From NCBI GenBank assembly GCA_964436855.1, contig CAYTED010000009.1:1-51288 (forward strand): a stretch of 51,288 nt of DNA. The letters run 5' to 3'. Under the pieces are notes generated by a model. It had not been told where the DNA came from and ran no database searches. It saw only the letters and a list, made by a program, of their open reading frames with translations. This DNA comes from an uncultured Bdellovibrionales bacterium. Its GTDB lineage: Bacteria; Patescibacteriota; Minisyncoccia; Moranbacterales; UBA1568. Below, piece by piece: positions 43,563 to 49,922 of the stretch (its first letter is position 1; every line of letters starts with the position of its first letter). The position numbers and the translations under genes are program-made.

Positions 43563-46500
43563 TTATTTTGAACGATTAAGCTGAAATGAAAAATCTTCAC
43601 CTTCAATCTCGAGAGTTTCATTATACTCCGCGTTTTCAAGTTCTCCGTTTTTCACCTCGGTGGCGAGGATTTCCCTCCCGATCATCTCACCGAACATTTC
43701 GAATACTTTTTCTTTGCCTTGATAGCCAAGAACAATTCTATCACTCACCTCAAATCCTGCTTTCTTTCGGCCCTCCTGGATTGCACGGATGATTTCGCGA
43801 GCATCGCCCTCAAGTTTGAGTTCTTCGGTGATTTTAACATCTAATGAGATCATTTCTTTGAGATCTTTCTCAACAAGAATAGTTTTTACATTTAATTCCT
43901 CTAAAATAACCCCTTCTAATTCTTTTGTAGCAATTGGAGCCATAAGTATCACAGCCCCCAAGGGTTGTCTCACTTTAATACCTGCTTTCGCTCTAAGCTC
44001 TAATCCTTTACTAATAATATATCGTACAGCCTCCATTTCTGAATTAAGATCTTCATCAATCAGCTGTTCGTCTGTTTCTGGCCAATCTGCAAGATGTACT
44101 GACTCAGGATCCTTCGACTCGCCGACTCGCTCAGGATGACAAGCAGAGCTTGTCAGATTCCGATACATTTCCTCGGCGAGGAATGGCGTGAATGGTGCCA
44201 TCAGTTTCGAAAGCGTTGCGAGCACAGTATACAAGGTCTGATACGCTTGCTCTTTATCATCGTCATTTTCGTTTTTCCAAAATCTTTTGCGGCTGCGACG
44301 AATGTACCAATTCGAAAGATTATCAATGAATGGCATGAAGAGACGAGTCGCCTTGGCAAGTTCATAGCACTCCATCGCATTGTTTACATCTCGAATTAAT
44401 ATATGTAATTCGGAAAGCATCCAACGATCAAGGAGATTCTTCGACGGCTCGGCGGCCTCCTTCGGAGTCCACTGATCAATCTCTGCATACATCATGAAAA
44501 ACGAATATGAATTCCAGAGCATACGAAACACATTGCGTGATGTTTCTGAGAGATCTCGCTCTGAGAAATTAAGGTTTTCTGCTGCCACGATCGGTGAAGA
44601 CAAGAGATAGAAACGCAGTGCATCTGCACCATATTTGTTCACAATCTCCATCGGATCCGGGTAGTTCTTGAGCTTCTTCGACATCTTCTTCCCGTCTTCC
44701 GCAAGCACTATGCCGTTTACAATCACATTTTTGAAAGCAACACTATCCCTGATCGCTGTACCGATCACGTGCTGGTAGTAGAACCACGCACGCGTCTGAT
44801 CGACGCCCTCGGCGATGAAGTCGGCCGGAAAGCTCTTTTCGAAGTGCTCCGTATTTTCAAATGGATAGTGCTCCTGCGCGTACGGCATCGAACCGGAATC
44901 AAACCAGGTATCAAGCACATCCGGAATGCGCTTCATCGTTCCGTTACATTCTTCACAAGTGACAGTGATTTCATCGACGATATGCTTATGCAGATCTTCC
45001 ACTTTCTTTCCACTCGCCTTTTCCAATTCAGCAACAGAACCAAAAACAACAATGTGTCCACATCCCTGTTCCATGTTCCCTGTTCCATGTTCTATGCCAT
45101 TGCATTTCCAAATCGGCATCACCGATGCCCAATAGCGTTGACGGCTGATCGACCAATCACGTGCGCCTTCGAGCCATTTGCCGAATCGCCCTTCTTTGAT
45201 GTGTTCCGGTGACCAACGGATATCCTTCGCGAGATCGAGCATCTTTTCCTTGATCTTCGTCACCGAGACAAACCACGACGACGTCGCATAGTTGAGAAGC
45301 GGCGTATCGCAGCGCCAGCAGTGCGGATAGCTGTGCTCATATTTTTCTTTTGAAAAAAGGAGTCCATTGTGCGCAAGGTATTTGATAATTTCAACATCCA
45401 TTTCCTGCGGATTTTCTCTTGGCTTCACTGGTTTGCCAGCGAAATCAGTTACTTCTTCCTTCATCGCTCCATCCATCTTCACATGCTGCACAAATGGAAG
45501 ATTCTTTTCCTTGCCAAGATTCATGTCGTCCTCACCAAACGCTGGTGCAATATGCACCACACCTGTTCCATCCTCTGTCGTCACAAAATCCGCAGCATAG
45601 ATCTTCCATCCATTTTCATGATTCGGGAGCGTTGTATCTTTTGAATAATAATCAAAGAGCGGCTTATAGGATTTTCCGACAAGATCAGCGCCTTTAAGCT
45701 CTCGAATAACTTCTGGCTGCGTATTCCGAAAGCCACTTGCATGTTTTCCGTTTATAATGTGCCTCCCATGGCGAAGATCTTCCTTCATTTTTTCAAAGGA
45801 AATTTTAGAAAGAATGGTATATTCTTCTTTAGATTTAACCTCGGAATTAACATTCGCAACAGAATCATCCTCGTTTTGAACCCATGAGTCCTTTACAAGG
45901 ACATATTCAATATCCTCCCCTACTGCCAAAGCGACGTTCCCTGGCAGGGTCCAAGGCGTCGTTGTCCATGCCAAAATATACGTCTTTTCTTCGTTTTCTG
46001 TTGACTGTTCATTGTTCTCTGTTAACTGAAATTTCGCCACCGCCGAGAGATCCTTCACATCCTGATACCCCTCACTTACTTCTTGCTGACTCAAAGTCGT
46101 CTCACAGCGTGGACAAATATGCATCGAGCGATAGCTTTCATAGATGAGCCCCTTGTCCCAGAGCTCCCTGAAGACCCACCATACGCTCTCCATATATTCC
46201 TTGTCCATGGTGCGATAGGCATTTTTCATGTCCGCCCAGCGGCCGATACGCGGGATCACTTTCTCCCATTCGGCGGCATACTCGAGCACCGTCGATCGAC
46301 AGAATTCATTGAACTTCGCTACGCCCATCGCTTCGATATCTTTCTTGTGTTTGATGCCAAGTTCCTTCTCTGCGATGTTTTCGATCGGCAATCCATGACA
46401 GTCCCATCCCCATTTCCGCTCCACCTGGAATCCTTTCATAGACCAGAATCGCGGCACCGCATCCTTAATCACGCTCGCGACGATATGCCCATAGTGAGGC

Positions 46501-46658
46501 AACCCCGTCGCAAACGGAGGCCCATCATTGAAACTATACTTCGGTTTTCCCGCGCGATGCTCCACCGACTTCTCGAAAATCTTCTGCTCATCCCAAAATT
46601 TGAGGATCTCCTCCTCCATTTTCGGAAAATTCATCTTCGGATCAACTTTTTTGAACAT
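43563..46658 (-). CDS. ileS: Isoleucine--tRNA ligase, type 2 (eukaryote-like)
   Basis: DGPPFATGLPHYGH, GWDCHGLP, WTTTPWTLPGN, DWSISRQRYW, KMSKK, LSNWYIRRSR; start set at MFKKV. Confidence 0.96.
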   Translation of the reverse strand: MFKKVDPKMNFPKMEEEILKFWDEQKIFEKSVEHRAGKPKYSFNDGPPFATGLPHYGHIVASVIKDAVPRFWSMKGFQVERKWGWDCHGLPIENIAEKELGIKHKKDIEAMGVAKFNEFCRSTVLEYAAEWEKVIPRIGRWADMKNAYRTMDKEYMESVWWVFRELWDKGLIYESYRSMHICPRCETTLSQQEVSEGYQDVKDLSAVAKFQLTENNEQSTENEEKTYILAWTTTPWTLPGNVALAVGEDIEYVLVKDSWVQNEDDSVANVNSEVKSKEEYTILSKISFEKMKEDLRHGRHIINGKHASGFRNTQPEVIRELKGADLVGKSYKPLFDYYSKDTTLPNHENGWKIYAADFVTTEDGTGVVHIAPAFGEDDMNLGKEKNLPFVQHVKMDGAMKEEVTDFAGKPVKPRENPQEMDVEIIKYLAHNGLLFSKEKYEHSYPHCWRCDTPLLNYATSSWFVSVTKIKEKMLDLAKDIRWSPEHIKEGRFGKWLEGARDWSISRQRYWASVMPIWKCNGIEHGTGNMEQGCGHIVVFGSVAELEKASGKKVEDLHKHIVDEITVTCEECNGTMKRIPDVLDTWFDSGSMPYAQEHYPFENTEHFEKSFPADFIAEGVDQTRAWFYYQHVIGTAIRDSVAFKNVIVNGIVLAEDGKKMSKKLKNYPDPMEIVNKYGADALRFYLLSSPIVAAENLNFSERDLSETSRNVFRMLWNSYSFFMMYAEIDQWTPKEAAEPSKNLLDRWMLSELHILIRDVNNAMECYELAKATRLFMPFIDNLSNWYIRRSRKRFWKNENDDDKEQAYQTLYTVLATLSKLMAPFTPFLAEEMYRNLTSSACHPERVGESKDPESVHLADWPETDEQLIDEDLNSEMEAVRYIISKGLELRAKAGIKVRQPLGAVILMAPIATKELEGVILEELNVKTILVEKDLKEMISLDVKITEELKLEGDAREIIRAIQEGRKKAGFEVSDRIVLGYQGKEKVFEMFGEMIGREILATEVKNGELENAEYNETLEIEGEDFSFQLNRSK
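44107..44141. repeat. REP-like palindrome in frame in ileS (CHPERVGESKDP)
   Basis: Minus strand TGTCATCCTGAGCGAGTCGGCGAGTCGAAGGATCC; starts with the same TGTCAT tag as the GIY-YIG repeats. Confidence 0.6.
45064..45098. repeat. Period-7 array inside ileS
   Basis: ccctgtt ccatgtt ccctgtt ccatgtt ctatgcc (GIEHGTGNMEQG). Confidence 0.8.
45996..46028. repeat. Period-7 array inside ileS
   Basis: ttctgtt gactgtt cattgtt ctctgtt (LTENNEQSTENE). Confidence 0.75.
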
Positions 46659-46662
46659 ATTA

Positions 46663-47085
46663 TTACTCAATATTATCTTGTAACTTTTTCTTGATCGCCT
46701 GCAGTAATTCTGAAGAAAGTTGAAAATGCTTATCCGTTTTCCAGTTATGTCCCCACTCTTCATCAATAAACTTCACTCCCTCGAAAACTCTTTCCGAGGA
46801 ATAGCGAGGAACAATATGCCCGTGCAAATGCCTCGTTTCATTTCCCAAAAAAGCATAGTTCATCCAATCCGCTTGAAATGTTTTTTCAAGAGCATTCTTC
46901 ATTTCTGGAAGGATCTGAAAAAGCTCTTCTTGTTCTTCTTTTGTCGCATCCGTTAAATCCAAAGCATCTTCTCGTTTACACCAAAGTACACTGCGCCCCA
47001 AATACCCCTGATTGGTATGTACCAACCATATCCAGTATTGGTAATCTTTTACAATATTTTGTGAGTAATCTTCAATATCTGACAT
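46663..47085 (-). CDS. HIT family hydrolase
   Basis: NYAFLGNETRHLHGHIVPRY (HxHxH triad). Confidence 0.88.
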   Translation of the reverse strand: MSDIEDYSQNIVKDYQYWIWLVHTNQGYLGRSVLWCKREDALDLTDATKEEQEELFQILPEMKNALEKTFQADWMNYAFLGNETRHLHGHIVPRYSSERVFEGVKFIDEEWGHNWKTDKHFQLSSELLQAIKKKLQDNIE

Positions 47086-47109
47086 ATATTAATCTGTAAA
47101 AATTATGAA

Positions 47110-47353
47110 TAAAAACAAAAAATCCCTAACACAAAAAATCGTGCTAAGGACGTTTGAAAAAATCAAAACGTGGTACCACCTTAATTTTAGTAACTCGTAA
47201 TCGGTAATCGGTAATCAGGGCTTAAATACTCCAGTGACCGGCTACTCATTACAAATTACCCTTATTCCTGCTGTTACGGGCTTACCCGGCGAAGTCTAAT
47301 CATGCGAAAGCACTTTCTTTCCGCAGCTCCGGAGTGATCGCTCCTTCATCGCC
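47110..47353 (-). ncRNA. T-box riboswitch (Ile, AUC specifier) with ultrashort Stem I and intrinsic terminator
   Basis: Minus strand: Stem I GGCGAUGAAGGAG-CG-AUC-A-CUCCGGAGCU (AUC at 47338-47336); Stem II with an AGAA/UAGA internal loop; CGGGUAAGCCCGUAACAGC; antiterminator AAGG-UGGUACC-ACG..CGU-CCUU; terminator UCCUUAGCAC..GUGUUAGGGA-U6. Confidence 0.9.
47190..47261. repeat. Inverted pair of period-7 arrays inside T-box Stem III
   Basis: gtaactc gtaatcg gtaatcg gtaatca ... gtgaccg gctactc attacaa attaccc. Confidence 0.75.
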
Positions 47354-47400
47354 TTTCAAAATTGTATCCTTACATTACCACGAAAAATCAAAAAAATCAA

Positions 47401-47994
47401 TTATTCTCCCCTCCACACCACCTCGGTACAACTCCCCTGTTTCGGATACCATCCCGTTGCCGAAACACCCGGTGCCTCGCCAACAATAATACCGTGCAGC
47501 TGTTCAAGCGGATCGCCGTGCGAGACAATAACCACGGTTTTCCCGGCATAGTATTTCGAAAGATCCCGAAGAAAACTCGAGAGACGCGAACGCATATCGA
47601 GAAAACTTTCCACGCCATCTTCTTCGTCCGGAACGATACGTGTTTCCGGCTCCGGATATTTTTTGAAAAAAAGCTCGATCGGTCGCTCATTGAAAATCCC
47701 AAGTCCCGTTTCATGAAGACGATCATCAATCAAAACCGGCACACCAGTCGCCTCGGAAATAACAGTCGCCGTTTCGCGCGTGCGAACAAACGGCGAACTG
47801 ATAATCGCGTCGATTTTTCGCCCTGCGAGTCTTTTCGCCACTTCGCGAATCTGCGCTTTTCCTTTTTTGGTCAGATGTCGTTCGGTAATTTCAGGCTGTG
47901 AGGACCCAACCCCAAGCACATTATGCTCCGCCTCGCCGTGTCGAACCAAAAAAAGAGTCATCGCGCCTCCTAATTCCGTTTTTTCCATATTCAT
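47401..47994 (-). CDS. Histidine phosphatase (PGM-like) family protein
   Basis: LFLVRHGEAEHN, SSPFVRTRETA, RLHE, IVSHGD. Confidence 0.9.
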   Translation of the reverse strand: MNMEKTELGGAMTLFLVRHGEAEHNVLGVGSSQPEITERHLTKKGKAQIREVAKRLAGRKIDAIISSPFVRTRETATVISEATGVPVLIDDRLHETGLGIFNERPIELFFKKYPEPETRIVPDEEDGVESFLDMRSRLSSFLRDLSKYYAGKTVVIVSHGDPLEQLHGIIVGEAPGVSATGWYPKQGSCTEVVWRGE

Positions 47995-48223: not shown

Positions 48224-49837
48224 TCACATCTTCTCCGGCGCAGAAACACCGATCAATCGAAGCGTCTCATTAAGAACAATTTTTACCCCTAAAACAAGCT
48301 TCAGTCGCGCCATTGAAACCTCCTTATTCTCCTCATCGATCACGCGACACGCGTCATAGAAAGAATGCAGCTTGTCCGCCAATCGAATCGCAAACTGCGG
48401 CAACCGATGCACTGAAAAATCCCTCGATGTCTCTTCGATCATTTCCGGAAAATGAAGGAGTTCTTGCAACAGCGCGCGCTCTTTTTCGTGCGTGAGAAGG
48501 AGGGAATCGCCCGCTCTGCTCACCCCTGCCTCTTCCGCCTTTCTCAAAATACTCGCGAGTCGCGCATGAGCGTATTGGACATAAAACACCGGGTTTTTGG
48601 CAGAATGTTCCTTCGCCAGACCAAGATCAAAATTCATGTGCGTATCAGGCGAGTACATCAAGAAGAAAAATCGCGCCACGTCATGCCCGACGGTGTCGAT
48701 CAATTCATCGACGGTTACCACGTTTCCGGCCCGTTTCGACATTCTGACTTCCTTTCCATCTCGCATGAGCCGCACAAGCTGAACAATATTGAATCGTATC
48801 TCCCCCGAAAAGCCGAGCGCCTTGGCCGCCGCCTCGAATCGAGTCACATAGCCGTGATGATCCGCTCCCCATGTTTCGATCAGCATCGAAAACCCCCGCT
48901 CAATTTTGTATAAAATATATCCACAGTCCGACGCGAAATATGTCTTTGCACCATCTTGCTTCACGAGCACGCGATCTTTGTCATCGCCGAAATCCGTCGA
49001 CCGGAACCACAGCGCTCCTTCGTTTTCATATGTCAGATTTTTTTCTTTCAAAACATCAATCGCTCGATCGACACACCCTCCTTGTATCAAATCTTTTTTC
49101 TCTGAAACAAAGGTATCAAATTGAATACGCATTTTTTCTTCAAGCGTCTTTTTGATCATTTCATCCATCACCAGCTCGGCCGCCTTTTCTCCGACCTCTC
49201 TCGCTTCGAGTTTGGATATTTCGTCTTTCAACTTTTCGTTGAACGTATCGATATATTCCCCTCCGTACACTGCTTCCGCATCTTTCAATACGCTGTGTCC
49301 GAGTTTTATCACCTGTTCTCCGCCGTCGTTCACATAGTATTCATTGGTTACGCTGCATCCTGTCTTGCGCAATACCCTTGAGAGTGCGTCACCAAAAAAT
49401 CCTCCGCGTCCATTTCCGAGATGAAGCGGTCCGGTCGGATTGGCTGAGACGAACTCATTATTGATCTTTTTTCCGGCACCGATCTCGGAACTTCCAAACG
49501 CGCTTCCTTTTGCAAGTACTTCCTCAAGGACGCCGCCGAGTGCTCTCTGCGAAAGAGAAATATTCAAATGTCCGGGCCCGGCCACTTCGATTTTTTCAAA
49601 AACATTCTGAGATTCTGTGTCCGTTACAAGCCCTTCTCTTATTTTTTCTGCGATTTCTCTCGGATTCTTCCCTGCTTGTTGTGAAAGTATCAGGGCGATA
49701 TTTGACGTATATTCTCCGAATTGATCATCCTTGGGCCGTTCGACACGGATTTCCGGAATATCAAAAAGAGGAAGACCTTTCGCCTTCTGAAGGTTTTGGA
49801 TCACCGATTGAATATTTTTTTCAAGCATTTGTTTCAT
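48224..49837 (-). CDS. argS: Arginine--tRNA ligase
   Basis: EFVSANPTGPLHLGNGRGG (HIGH variant), EYYVNDGG, WGADHHGY, MSKRAG, YVQYAHARLASI; start uncertain (49837 or 49849). Confidence 0.96.
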   Translation of the reverse strand: MKQMLEKNIQSVIQNLQKAKGLPLFDIPEIRVERPKDDQFGEYTSNIALILSQQAGKNPREIAEKIREGLVTDTESQNVFEKIEVAGPGHLNISLSQRALGGVLEEVLAKGSAFGSSEIGAGKKINNEFVSANPTGPLHLGNGRGGFFGDALSRVLRKTGCSVTNEYYVNDGGEQVIKLGHSVLKDAEAVYGGEYIDTFNEKLKDEISKLEAREVGEKAAELVMDEMIKKTLEEKMRIQFDTFVSEKKDLIQGGCVDRAIDVLKEKNLTYENEGALWFRSTDFGDDKDRVLVKQDGAKTYFASDCGYILYKIERGFSMLIETWGADHHGYVTRFEAAAKALGFSGEIRFNIVQLVRLMRDGKEVRMSKRAGNVVTVDELIDTVGHDVARFFFLMYSPDTHMNFDLGLAKEHSAKNPVFYVQYAHARLASILRKAEEAGVSRAGDSLLLTHEKERALLQELLHFPEMIEETSRDFSVHRLPQFAIRLADKLHSFYDACRVIDEENKEVSMARLKLVLGVKIVLNETLRLIGVSAPEKM

Positions 49838-49893
49838 ACTCCGAATCATAGCCGAAAAAAGCCAAAAAGGGAAGGTTTGGGAAAGTGATACCA

Positions 49894-49922
49894 TTGACAT
49901 TTCCAGTCATTTTTGGTATAAA
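49894..49922 (+). promoter_or_regulatory. Near-consensus sigma70 promoter
   Basis: TTGACA(49894-49899)-17 nt-TATAAA(49917-49922) with TGn extension. Confidence 0.75.

Follow-up and report, generated by a model that had tools for sequence, protein, structure and literature searches.

A probable tRNA-Ile-responsive T-box leader with an ultrashort Stem I and a terminator hairpin upstream of a type-2 ileS operon in a candidate phyla radiation bacterium

The DNA stretch of 51,288 nucleotides analyzed here over its whole length (hereafter, the window; contig CAYTED010000009.1) carries on its minus strand a complete T-box leader (47353..47111), located 5′ of an operon that comprises a HIT-like gene and ileS; this leader very probably operates as a tRNA-Ile-responsive riboswitch that governs the operon by transcription attenuation. 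The leader joins a decoding module with an ultrashort Stem I to a terminator hairpin that is mutually exclusive with the antiterminator, and it is the sole T-box core within the 51-kb window. The host is regarded as a candidate phyla radiation (CPR) bacterium, since the closest relatives of its IleRS, at no more than 73% identity, belong to Candidatus Moranbacteria/Moraniibacteriota. A preliminary description of this DNA had listed the elements of a T-box at 47110-47353, and every one of them is present there, on the minus strand.

Decoding module and expression platform

The leader is housed in a 315-nt intergenic region between the His_Phos_1 gene and the HIT-like gene, all of them on the minus strand, and its elements are the following.

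47353..47325, minus strand: ultrashort Stem I, with a kink-turn (K-turn; GC / GAUGA...GGA / GC), a 4-5-bp helix and the 6-nt apical loop CGAUCA
47338..47336, minus strand: Specifier AUC (Ile codon), followed by a conserved purine, A, at 47335
47324..47289, minus strand: Stem II, with the lower helix GCGGA/UUCGC, the S-turn strands AAGAA and UUAGA, and a short upper hairpin
47288..47269, minus strand: Stem IIA/B pseudoknot region, CGGG-UAAG-CCCG and then UAACAGCA
47261..47189, minus strand: Stem III, 73 nt, folding at -25.0 kcal/mol
47186..47169, minus strand: T-box sequence AAUUAAGGUGGUACCACG, with the bulge UGGUACC at 47178..47172
47183..47145, minus strand: antiterminator, with helix A1 (UAAGG/CCUUA), a 7-nt bulge and helix A2 (ACGUUU/AAACGU), -8.0 kcal/mol
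47151..47122, minus strand: terminator hairpin GUCCUUAGCACGA-UUUU-UUGUGUUAGGGAU, 13 bp, -16.9 kcal/mol, also returned by a consensus scan
47122..47111, minus strand: U-run UUUUUUGUUUUU, 12 nt, 25 nt 5′ of the HIT-like start codon

The preliminary description had proposed a search with the Rfam T-box model RF00230; in a permissive scan of 46900..47600, this model matches 47358..47143 (minus strand) over its full length (positions 1-219) with 52.0 bits and E = 1.9e-10, and the E-value constitutes a test independent of the structural reading. The sole large deviation from the model is located in the distal Stem I, where the window has 6 nt in place of 76 model positions; because of this absence the score remains under the gathering score of 93, and a default Rfam scan of the window therefore reports one tRNA and no T-box. 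Stem I reads GGCGAUGAAGGAG-CGAUCA-CUCCGGAGCU, AUC with the adjacent purine occupies the equal loop position in 58 related leaders, and the whole leader folds more stably than all 200 shuffles (z = -3.4). Covariation was evaluated in an alignment of 34 decoding modules, in which the base pairs form in 89.8% of the cells versus at most 46% when the partners are slid; compensatory changes are found at each of the ten pairs that make up the upper helix of Stem I (five) and the lower helix of Stem II (five), and the covariation score observed for these stems is reached by no shuffle. The lower helix of Stem II is paired in 97.6% of the cells, and the letters of the S-turn are invariant or nearly so. 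The IIA pairs and two of the IIB pairs were fixed by the search pattern and are uninformative on covariation, the third IIB pair (90-103 in alignment A3) being the one that covaries, as GC, GU, AU, CG, and UA.

In the expression platform, the UGGU of the T-box bulge is complementary to a tRNA 3′ end with the sequence ACCA, and the 7-nt segment GUCCUUA (47151..47145) is common to the antiterminator and the terminator, which makes the two structures mutually exclusive. This exclusivity, as well as the termination of the element about 25 nt before the HIT-like start, had been anticipated in the preliminary description, and the U-run indeed ends 25 nt before the ATG at 47085. The stabilities of both structures are in line with the TBDB averages for transcriptional T-boxes, which are -7.4 kcal/mol for the antiterminator and -19.5 kcal/mol for the terminator. 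In 24 relatives, the antiterminator pairs are formed in 99.5% of the cases, versus at most 50% when slid, and are nearly invariant, as is usual for a T-box core. For the terminator, the comparison was made by per-sequence folds, since the 3′ arms shift register between sequences and column-based covariation is unusable; all 24 relatives carry a hairpin of 7-13 bp (-7 to -17 kcal/mol) beginning within the 3′ strand of the antiterminator (CCUUA), and its distal arms vary yet stay complementary (GCAC/GUGU, UGCA/UGCA, AACACA/UGUGUU, or CUCCG/CGGGG).

These features are consistent with a mechanism in which transcription would start about 10-15 nt upstream of the K-turn and the nascent decoding module would fold and expose the Specifier AUC in its apical loop for pairing with the anticodon of tRNA-Ile. 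The ligand is presumably a tRNA-Ile with the anticodon GAU and the discriminator base A73. The docked S-turn of Stem II and the stacked IIA/B pseudoknot would clamp the anticodon-Specifier duplex, as in the solved actinobacterial Class III complexes (ileS T-box structures 6UFG/6UFM, cited in PMC7583486), and the tRNA elbow would receive no contact from any Stem I platform. With uncharged tRNA, the 3′ ACCA would pair with UGGU and stabilize the weak antiterminator (-8 kcal/mol), allowing the RNA polymerase to read into the operon; with the tRNA charged or absent, GUCCUUA would go to the stronger terminator (-17 kcal/mol), and transcription would stop in the U-run, at about 47111.

Related leaders and known T-box classes

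Relatives of the leader were gathered from three sets: (a) 80 type-2 ileS loci from GTDB species genomes, (b) the contigs encoding the seven closest IleRS proteins, and (c) metagenome contigs with an exact match to TAGA-N6-CGGG-N3-GCCCGTAA-N-AGC, from which 80 of at least 120 stretches were taken; the pattern used for the last set covers the 3′ strand of Stem II and IIA, and is blind to Stem I and to the expression platform. A total of 91 leaders was classified with the covariance model R1, built from the decoding-module alignment, together with a pairing filter and manual parses, which were used since the model-based alignment A4 wrongly gives Class IV leaders a pseudo-apical loop. A terminator was scored when a hairpin of -5 kcal/mol or lower abutted a U-run lying at most 190 nt from the T-box.

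Ile leaders with the Specifier in the apical loop represent 58 of the 91 classified, and a hairpin with a U-run follows the T-box in 48 of the 52 with enough downstream sequence; a control placed 500 nt further into coding DNA gave such a structure in 9 of 62 cases. Median GC content is 0.40 among the terminator-bearing leaders. Among the four apical-loop Ile leaders lacking one, L155 is high-GC, and L096, L121, and L141 are low-GC and unclear. Two further high-GC leaders, L107 and L146 (Class IV), have no terminator and carry a classical Shine-Dalgarno (SD) sequestrator (...CACAAGGACGAAACAUG); together with L155 they look actinobacterial.

The apical loop AUC(A) combined with hairpin and U-run is found in Parcubacteria (L001), Saccharimonadia (L025, L043, and L054), L035, and Moraniibacteriota (L004), and homologous leaders upstream of ileS occur in the CPR genomes L001, L002, L004, L025, L031, L040, L043, and L054. 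Moreover, the leader is present in six of the closest-IleRS loci (L081/82 and L083-L087), all with the same terminator CCUUAGCAC...GUGUUAAGG and U-run; Stem I is ultrashort in L085 and L087, as in the window, and intermediate in L081, L083, L084, and L086, where a mini-hairpin of about 20 nt stands above a side-bulge Specifier. In the GTDB sample, R1 detects the module in 6 of the 21 CPR-labelled loci, plus L002, L035, and L040, whose labels are uninformative or doubtful. Leaders with platform-less decoding and a terminator are, in summary, widespread but patchy in CPR. The survey of ileS leaders that the preliminary description had advocated thus extends the design to further CPR genomes with a patchy distribution, and its view of the leader as a hybrid is borne out as regards an Actinobacteria-type ultrashort Stem I with a terminator in a CPR genome, and has to be abandoned as regards a one-off, since this leader type is the ordinary one before ileS in many Parcubacteria/Moranbacteria and Saccharimonadia genomes, and also in metagenomes.

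The base of the UGGN motif accompanies the Specifier throughout the class: all 52 Ile leaders and the three Val leaders have UGGU, and of the seven AspRS leaders six have UGGC and one, L131, has UGGU. The discriminator base is A73 in tRNA-Ile and tRNA-Val, and G73 in tRNA-Asp. The agreement of UGGN with these bases across the class therefore lends internal support to real tRNA sensing.

Compared with the known classes, the leader has the traits of the T-box family, namely a T-box sequence with a 7-nt UGGN bulge in the antiterminator, AUC-A above a K-turn, and ileS downstream. Its decoding half is Class III in the four-class scheme (PMC10482949), and several close relatives are Class IV. In common with the Class III ileS T-boxes of Mycobacterium smegmatis, M. 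tuberculosis, and Nocardia farcinica, it has a short Stem I that lacks the distal double-T-loop platform, an AUC Specifier with a purine in a 5-6-nt apical loop (here a hexanucleotide) above the K-turn, a UGGU bulge, a type-2 ileS downstream, and a common sequence signature in IIA and the 3′ strand of Stem II. It also has the Stem II S-turn and the IIA/B pseudoknot, both of which a T-box needs when the platform is missing. Unlike them, it has an intrinsic terminator and U-run instead of an SD sequestrator, a CPR host with low GC and no SD usage, a Stem III of 73 nt with heptad repeats, and a HIT-like gene between leader and ileS. With Class I (Bacillus subtilis tyrS type, RF00230) it shares the K-turn, the Stem II S-turn, IIA/B, Stem III, and the competition of antiterminator and terminator around the T-box, with similar relative stabilities and a U-run, whereas the long Stem I of that class is absent, with the loss of about 76 nt that hold the specifier internal loop, the AG bulge, and the elbow-stacking distal loop. 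The relatives with a mini-hairpin correspond to the Class IV ileS T-boxes (Actinomyces odontolyticus type, PMC10482949) and otherwise match the window leader, which has lost or never had the mini-hairpin; both forms are terminator-type in this clade.

In the four-class scheme, Classes III and IV "mostly regulate translation initiation" (PMC10482949), and SD-sequestering translational control is stated for the ultrashort Class III as a whole (10.1101/2023.02.28.530422; PMC12990946, a 2026 review); the literature covered here, which runs to 2026, presents ultrashort T-boxes as translational and ileS-only. That the pairing of a platform-less module with a terminator is atypical agrees with PMC7583486, PMC10482949, and bioRxiv 10.1101/2023.02.28.530422. 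The word "mostly" in PMC10482949 hints that a small number of ultrashort leaders with terminators may have been recorded before, and some CPR leaders may be stored in TBDB under a translational label, the translational model having been run there only in Actinobacteria and on Rfam hits with truncated Stem I (PMC7778990). A literature search combining T-box with Patescibacteria/CPR terms, outside of which the founding T-box papers lie, found no paper.

The resemblance to actinobacterial leaders raises the possibility of a recent horizontal import of a block of T-box and type-2 ileS from an actinobacterial-type donor, with later replacement of the sequestrator by a terminator, and the preliminary description had likewise proposed that the leader was acquired together with the type-2 ileS. 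Such an import is unlikely. The CPR and the high-GC Actinobacteria-like modules do have UAGA-N6-CGGG-N3-GCCCGUAA-N-AGC in common and both precede type-2 ileS, a shared signature that argues for a common ancestry of the decoding module. Nevertheless, the design is found in CPR classes that lie far apart (Paceibacteria-type and Saccharimonadia-type) and that each have a platform variant of their own, aspS, valS, and a phosphoenolpyruvate (PEP) carboxylase gene also stand behind it in low-GC contigs, its presence is patchy among close IleRS relatives, and the first gene behind the leader varies, all of which points to a long residence with repeated loss, or even to a reverse transfer. Co-acquisition with the type-2 ileS likewise lacks support, in view of the patchy presence (L088 and 15 of the 21 CPR-labelled loci are without this leader), of the canonical long Stem I of the T-boxes in type-2 ileS loci of Chloroflexi and Clostridia (L047, L066, L075, and L064, from Dehalococcoidales, Thermoflexus, and Clostridia), and of the use of the apical-loop design in Asp and Val leaders.

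Evidence for and against transcriptional control

Several observations weigh against a functional tRNA-Ile-responsive attenuator in this leader. The gene for tRNA-Ile(GAU) is absent from the window, which contains only tRNA-Leu(CAA), and from 60 related loci. The promoter-like site upstream of the K-turn is weak, a putative element below the reach of a consensus promoter scan. A and U predominate in the terminator, which has three G-U pairs in its stem and many U residues in its loop, and the consensus scan returns one site versus 0.7 expected in shuffles; given that shuffles yield similar numbers, the terminator call rests on context and conservation. L088 carries ArgRS, His_Phos, HIT, and ileS in the same order with no T-box, and most of the sampled CPR ileS loci also lack one, which indicates that the leader is dispensable. 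The tRNA response is deduced from sequence, as it is for every CPR T-box. Finally, co-transcriptional T-boxes have been argued, on kinetic grounds, to need the Stem I platform for a fast capture of the tRNA (PMC7583486), and the window leader is without that platform.

Some of these points would also suit a decaying or inert T-box remnant, whose hairpin and U-run would terminate constitutively or mark where the His_Phos_1 transcript ends, with the operon driven otherwise; CPR genomes are reduced, the element is missing in L088 and in most of the sampled CPR loci, and the promoter is weak. This explanation is very improbable, given that all conserved T-box motifs are intact, that compensatory changes maintain the helices across dozens of diverged leaders, and that Specifier and UGGN base both vary in step with the gene that follows; in addition, a second promoter would not fit into the 25 nt that separate the AUG from the U-run, so that a constitutive terminator would silence an essential gene.

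Least probable of all, and only marginally credible, is an actinobacterial-style control in which the 3′ hairpin would be a sequestrator blocking translation initiation and the U-run incidental: the type of decoding module and its sequence pattern equal those of the high-GC SD-sequestering leaders L107 and L146, and in L115, L142, and L148 the 3′ arm includes GGAG and the U-run is followed at 6 nt by an AUG, so mixed control may exist in the family. In the window, however, the distance to the AUG is 36 nt from the end of the hairpin and 25 nt from the end of the U-run, with nothing SD-like in the interval; the genome gives no sign of SD usage, and the U-run is kept in 48 of 52 leaders versus 15% in the control. 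No SD sequence precedes the start codon of either the HIT-like gene or ileS, and SD-like 4-mers precede 6 of the 52 window open reading frames (ORFs) of at least 150 aa versus a background of 10%, a count based on start codons crudely assigned as the first ATG that reveals no enrichment; translational control is implausible for these reasons.

Transcription attenuation thus remains the best account of the leader. The use of a terminator may reflect that SD sequestration would have no target in the genome of the window, and this rationale is only an inference, on which the Saccharimonadia leaders weigh, since they have SDs yet use terminators. It is conceivable, though somewhat short of an even chance, that apical-loop (Class III/IV) modules with intrinsic terminators are a hitherto undescribed T-box type, the principal one in Patescibacteria, radiated to aspS, valS, and the PEP carboxylase gene and acting co-transcriptionally without an elbow platform, and that the concertedly evolving heptad-repeat Stem III of one large clade plays a separate role, such as delaying transcription or forming a rod to which proteins bind.

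A class that joins a platform-less module to a terminator bears on the rule that transcriptional T-boxes need a long Stem I to catch the tRNA before the terminator is made; in that rule, platform-less T-boxes fit only the slower, reversible translational control, and an RNA of about 250 nt makes the rule testable. Genome-reduced CPR bacteria, largely without SD-led initiation in the case studied here, would appear to monitor tRNA charging for at least Ile, and, judging from related contigs, possibly Asp and Val. None of 18 such leaders reaches the Rfam T-box gathering score, and riboswitch censuses based on Rfam would therefore under-count regulation in CPR. Platform-less T-boxes already serve as engineering scaffolds (bioRxiv 10.1101/2023.02.28.530422), and a transcriptional version widens this toolbox.

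Stem III, operon context, and further leaders

The 5′ arm of Stem III reads GGUAAU/UUGUAAU/GAGUAG and the 3′ arm consists of three GAUUACC units and then GAGUUAC; period 7 is significant in both arms (p = 0.02 and 0.003), and the period-7 array reported by Tandem Repeats Finder (TRF), GTAATCG x 2.9 at 47197..47216, coincides with the 3′ arm. The preliminary description had seen in this region a period-7 inverted element that expands Stem III. Both the period and the expansion are real; the notion of an inserted element does not hold, since the unit GATTACC has no copy elsewhere in the window and the heptad-repeat Stem III is a clade trait. A mobile or dispersed repeat was accordingly rejected as its origin, the unit being confined to Stem III and the equally long Stem IIIs of relatives using other units. 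The spacing from IIA/B to the T-box has several modes across the leaders (14-19, 24-37, 42-63, and 77-98 nt), and period-7/8 repeats are significant in both arms in 10 of the 25 leaders with at least 60 nt, the window included, and in one arm in several more. Tandem 7-8-nt repeats on both arms were seen in the window, L085, L091, L098, L101, L125, L134, L135, L167, and L168. The units differ per genome (GUUUGUG, AGCUUNU, AACUAGC, GUUUUUA/CGAACUA, GUAUUAU, and GGUAAUC), which points to a concerted evolution of the two arms, and the repeat-built Stem IIIs fold into 6-bp blocks parted by single mismatches. A long Stem III was also considered as a general kinetic substitute for the missing platform and discarded, since the ultrashort terminator leaders of Saccharimonadia type have no Stem III.

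These Saccharimonadia-type leaders (L114, L137, L138, L153, and L166, as well as L025, L043, and L054) have the T-box GAUGGUACC and 14-19 nt between IIA/B and the T-box, and the 5′ arm of their terminator starts upstream of the T-box sequence, enclosing the whole antiterminator.

The genes and signals around the leader are the following.

49900..48224, minus strand: ArgRS, in the neighborhood directly upstream
47994..47401, minus strand: His_Phos_1 phosphatase, directly upstream of the leader
47372..47400, minus strand: putative promoter, TTGATT (47400..47395), a 17-nt spacer and TAATGT (47377..47372)
47085..46663, minus strand: HIT-like protein, 140 aa, motif HLHGHIVP, Pfam PF01230 (E = 1.8e-8)
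46658..43563, minus strand: type-2 ileS (MupA/B-like, with the DUF5915 C-terminal domain), 1031 aa, recognized by TIGR00392 and Pfam domains

The HIT-like gene is the first regulated gene, with its ATG at 47085, and no NCBIfam match was found for its product. The IleRS scores 931.6 bits with TIGR00392, above the cut-off of 621.4, and is encoded by a bona fide ileS; its start is most likely the ATG at 46658, 4 nt past the stop codon of the HIT-like gene, in a tight operon. Transcription would start near UACAAU (47366..47361), and TTGATT-17-TAnnnT recurs at equal distance from the K-turn in the relatives L081, L083, L085, and L087. Upstream of ArgRS, neither a T-box core nor a decoding module was found. 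A plus-strand reading of 47110..47353 was rejected, the ORFs 47334..47489 and 47362..47901 being antisense to the His_Phos_1 gene and spurious.

The gene between leader and ileS is HIT-like in the window, a member of the 23S_rRNA_IVP family in L081 and L087, a gene for a 139-aa membrane-like protein in L083, and one for a 368-aa protein in L086; no gene intervenes in L084, L085, and L001. The HIT-like protein of the window has the HxHxH motif alone in common with the products of the HIT genes near ileS in L081 and L088 and is not orthologous to them, and the HIT-like gene was therefore discarded as a conserved partner of ileS.

Among the related contigs, the only tRNA-Ile gene found is located in L167 (8101..8174); its anticodon is UAU, not that of the GAU isoacceptor expected as ligand, and it apparently has U73, and the ileS T-box on the same contig has UGGU. 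L125 (868..1260) contains a single T-box with an ultrashort Stem I and an insertion of about 190 nt in Stem II; a tandem T-box with two decoding modules was considered for this locus and rejected on that basis. The AUG stands 6 nt after the U-run in L115, L142, and L148, and also in L113, L126, and L133, with GGAG in the 3′ arm of the terminator (GGAGAGCGGAUUUUUUAUG), so that one hairpin could both terminate transcription and mask the ribosome-binding site.

In leaders before other genes, a GAC apical loop with UGGC precedes archaeal-type AspRS genes in L123, L143, L149, L152, L157, and L164 (with UGGU in L131), and a GAC apical loop with UGGU precedes an archaeal-type PEP carboxylase (PEPcase_2) in L113 and L126. 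A GUC apical loop with UGGU is located before ValRS in L129, L139, and L090; the ValRS-like ORF of L139 (1026 aa, about 25 nt past the U-run) has, by eye, an apparent histidine-phosphatase-like insert (...DLKRATESANYAF...).

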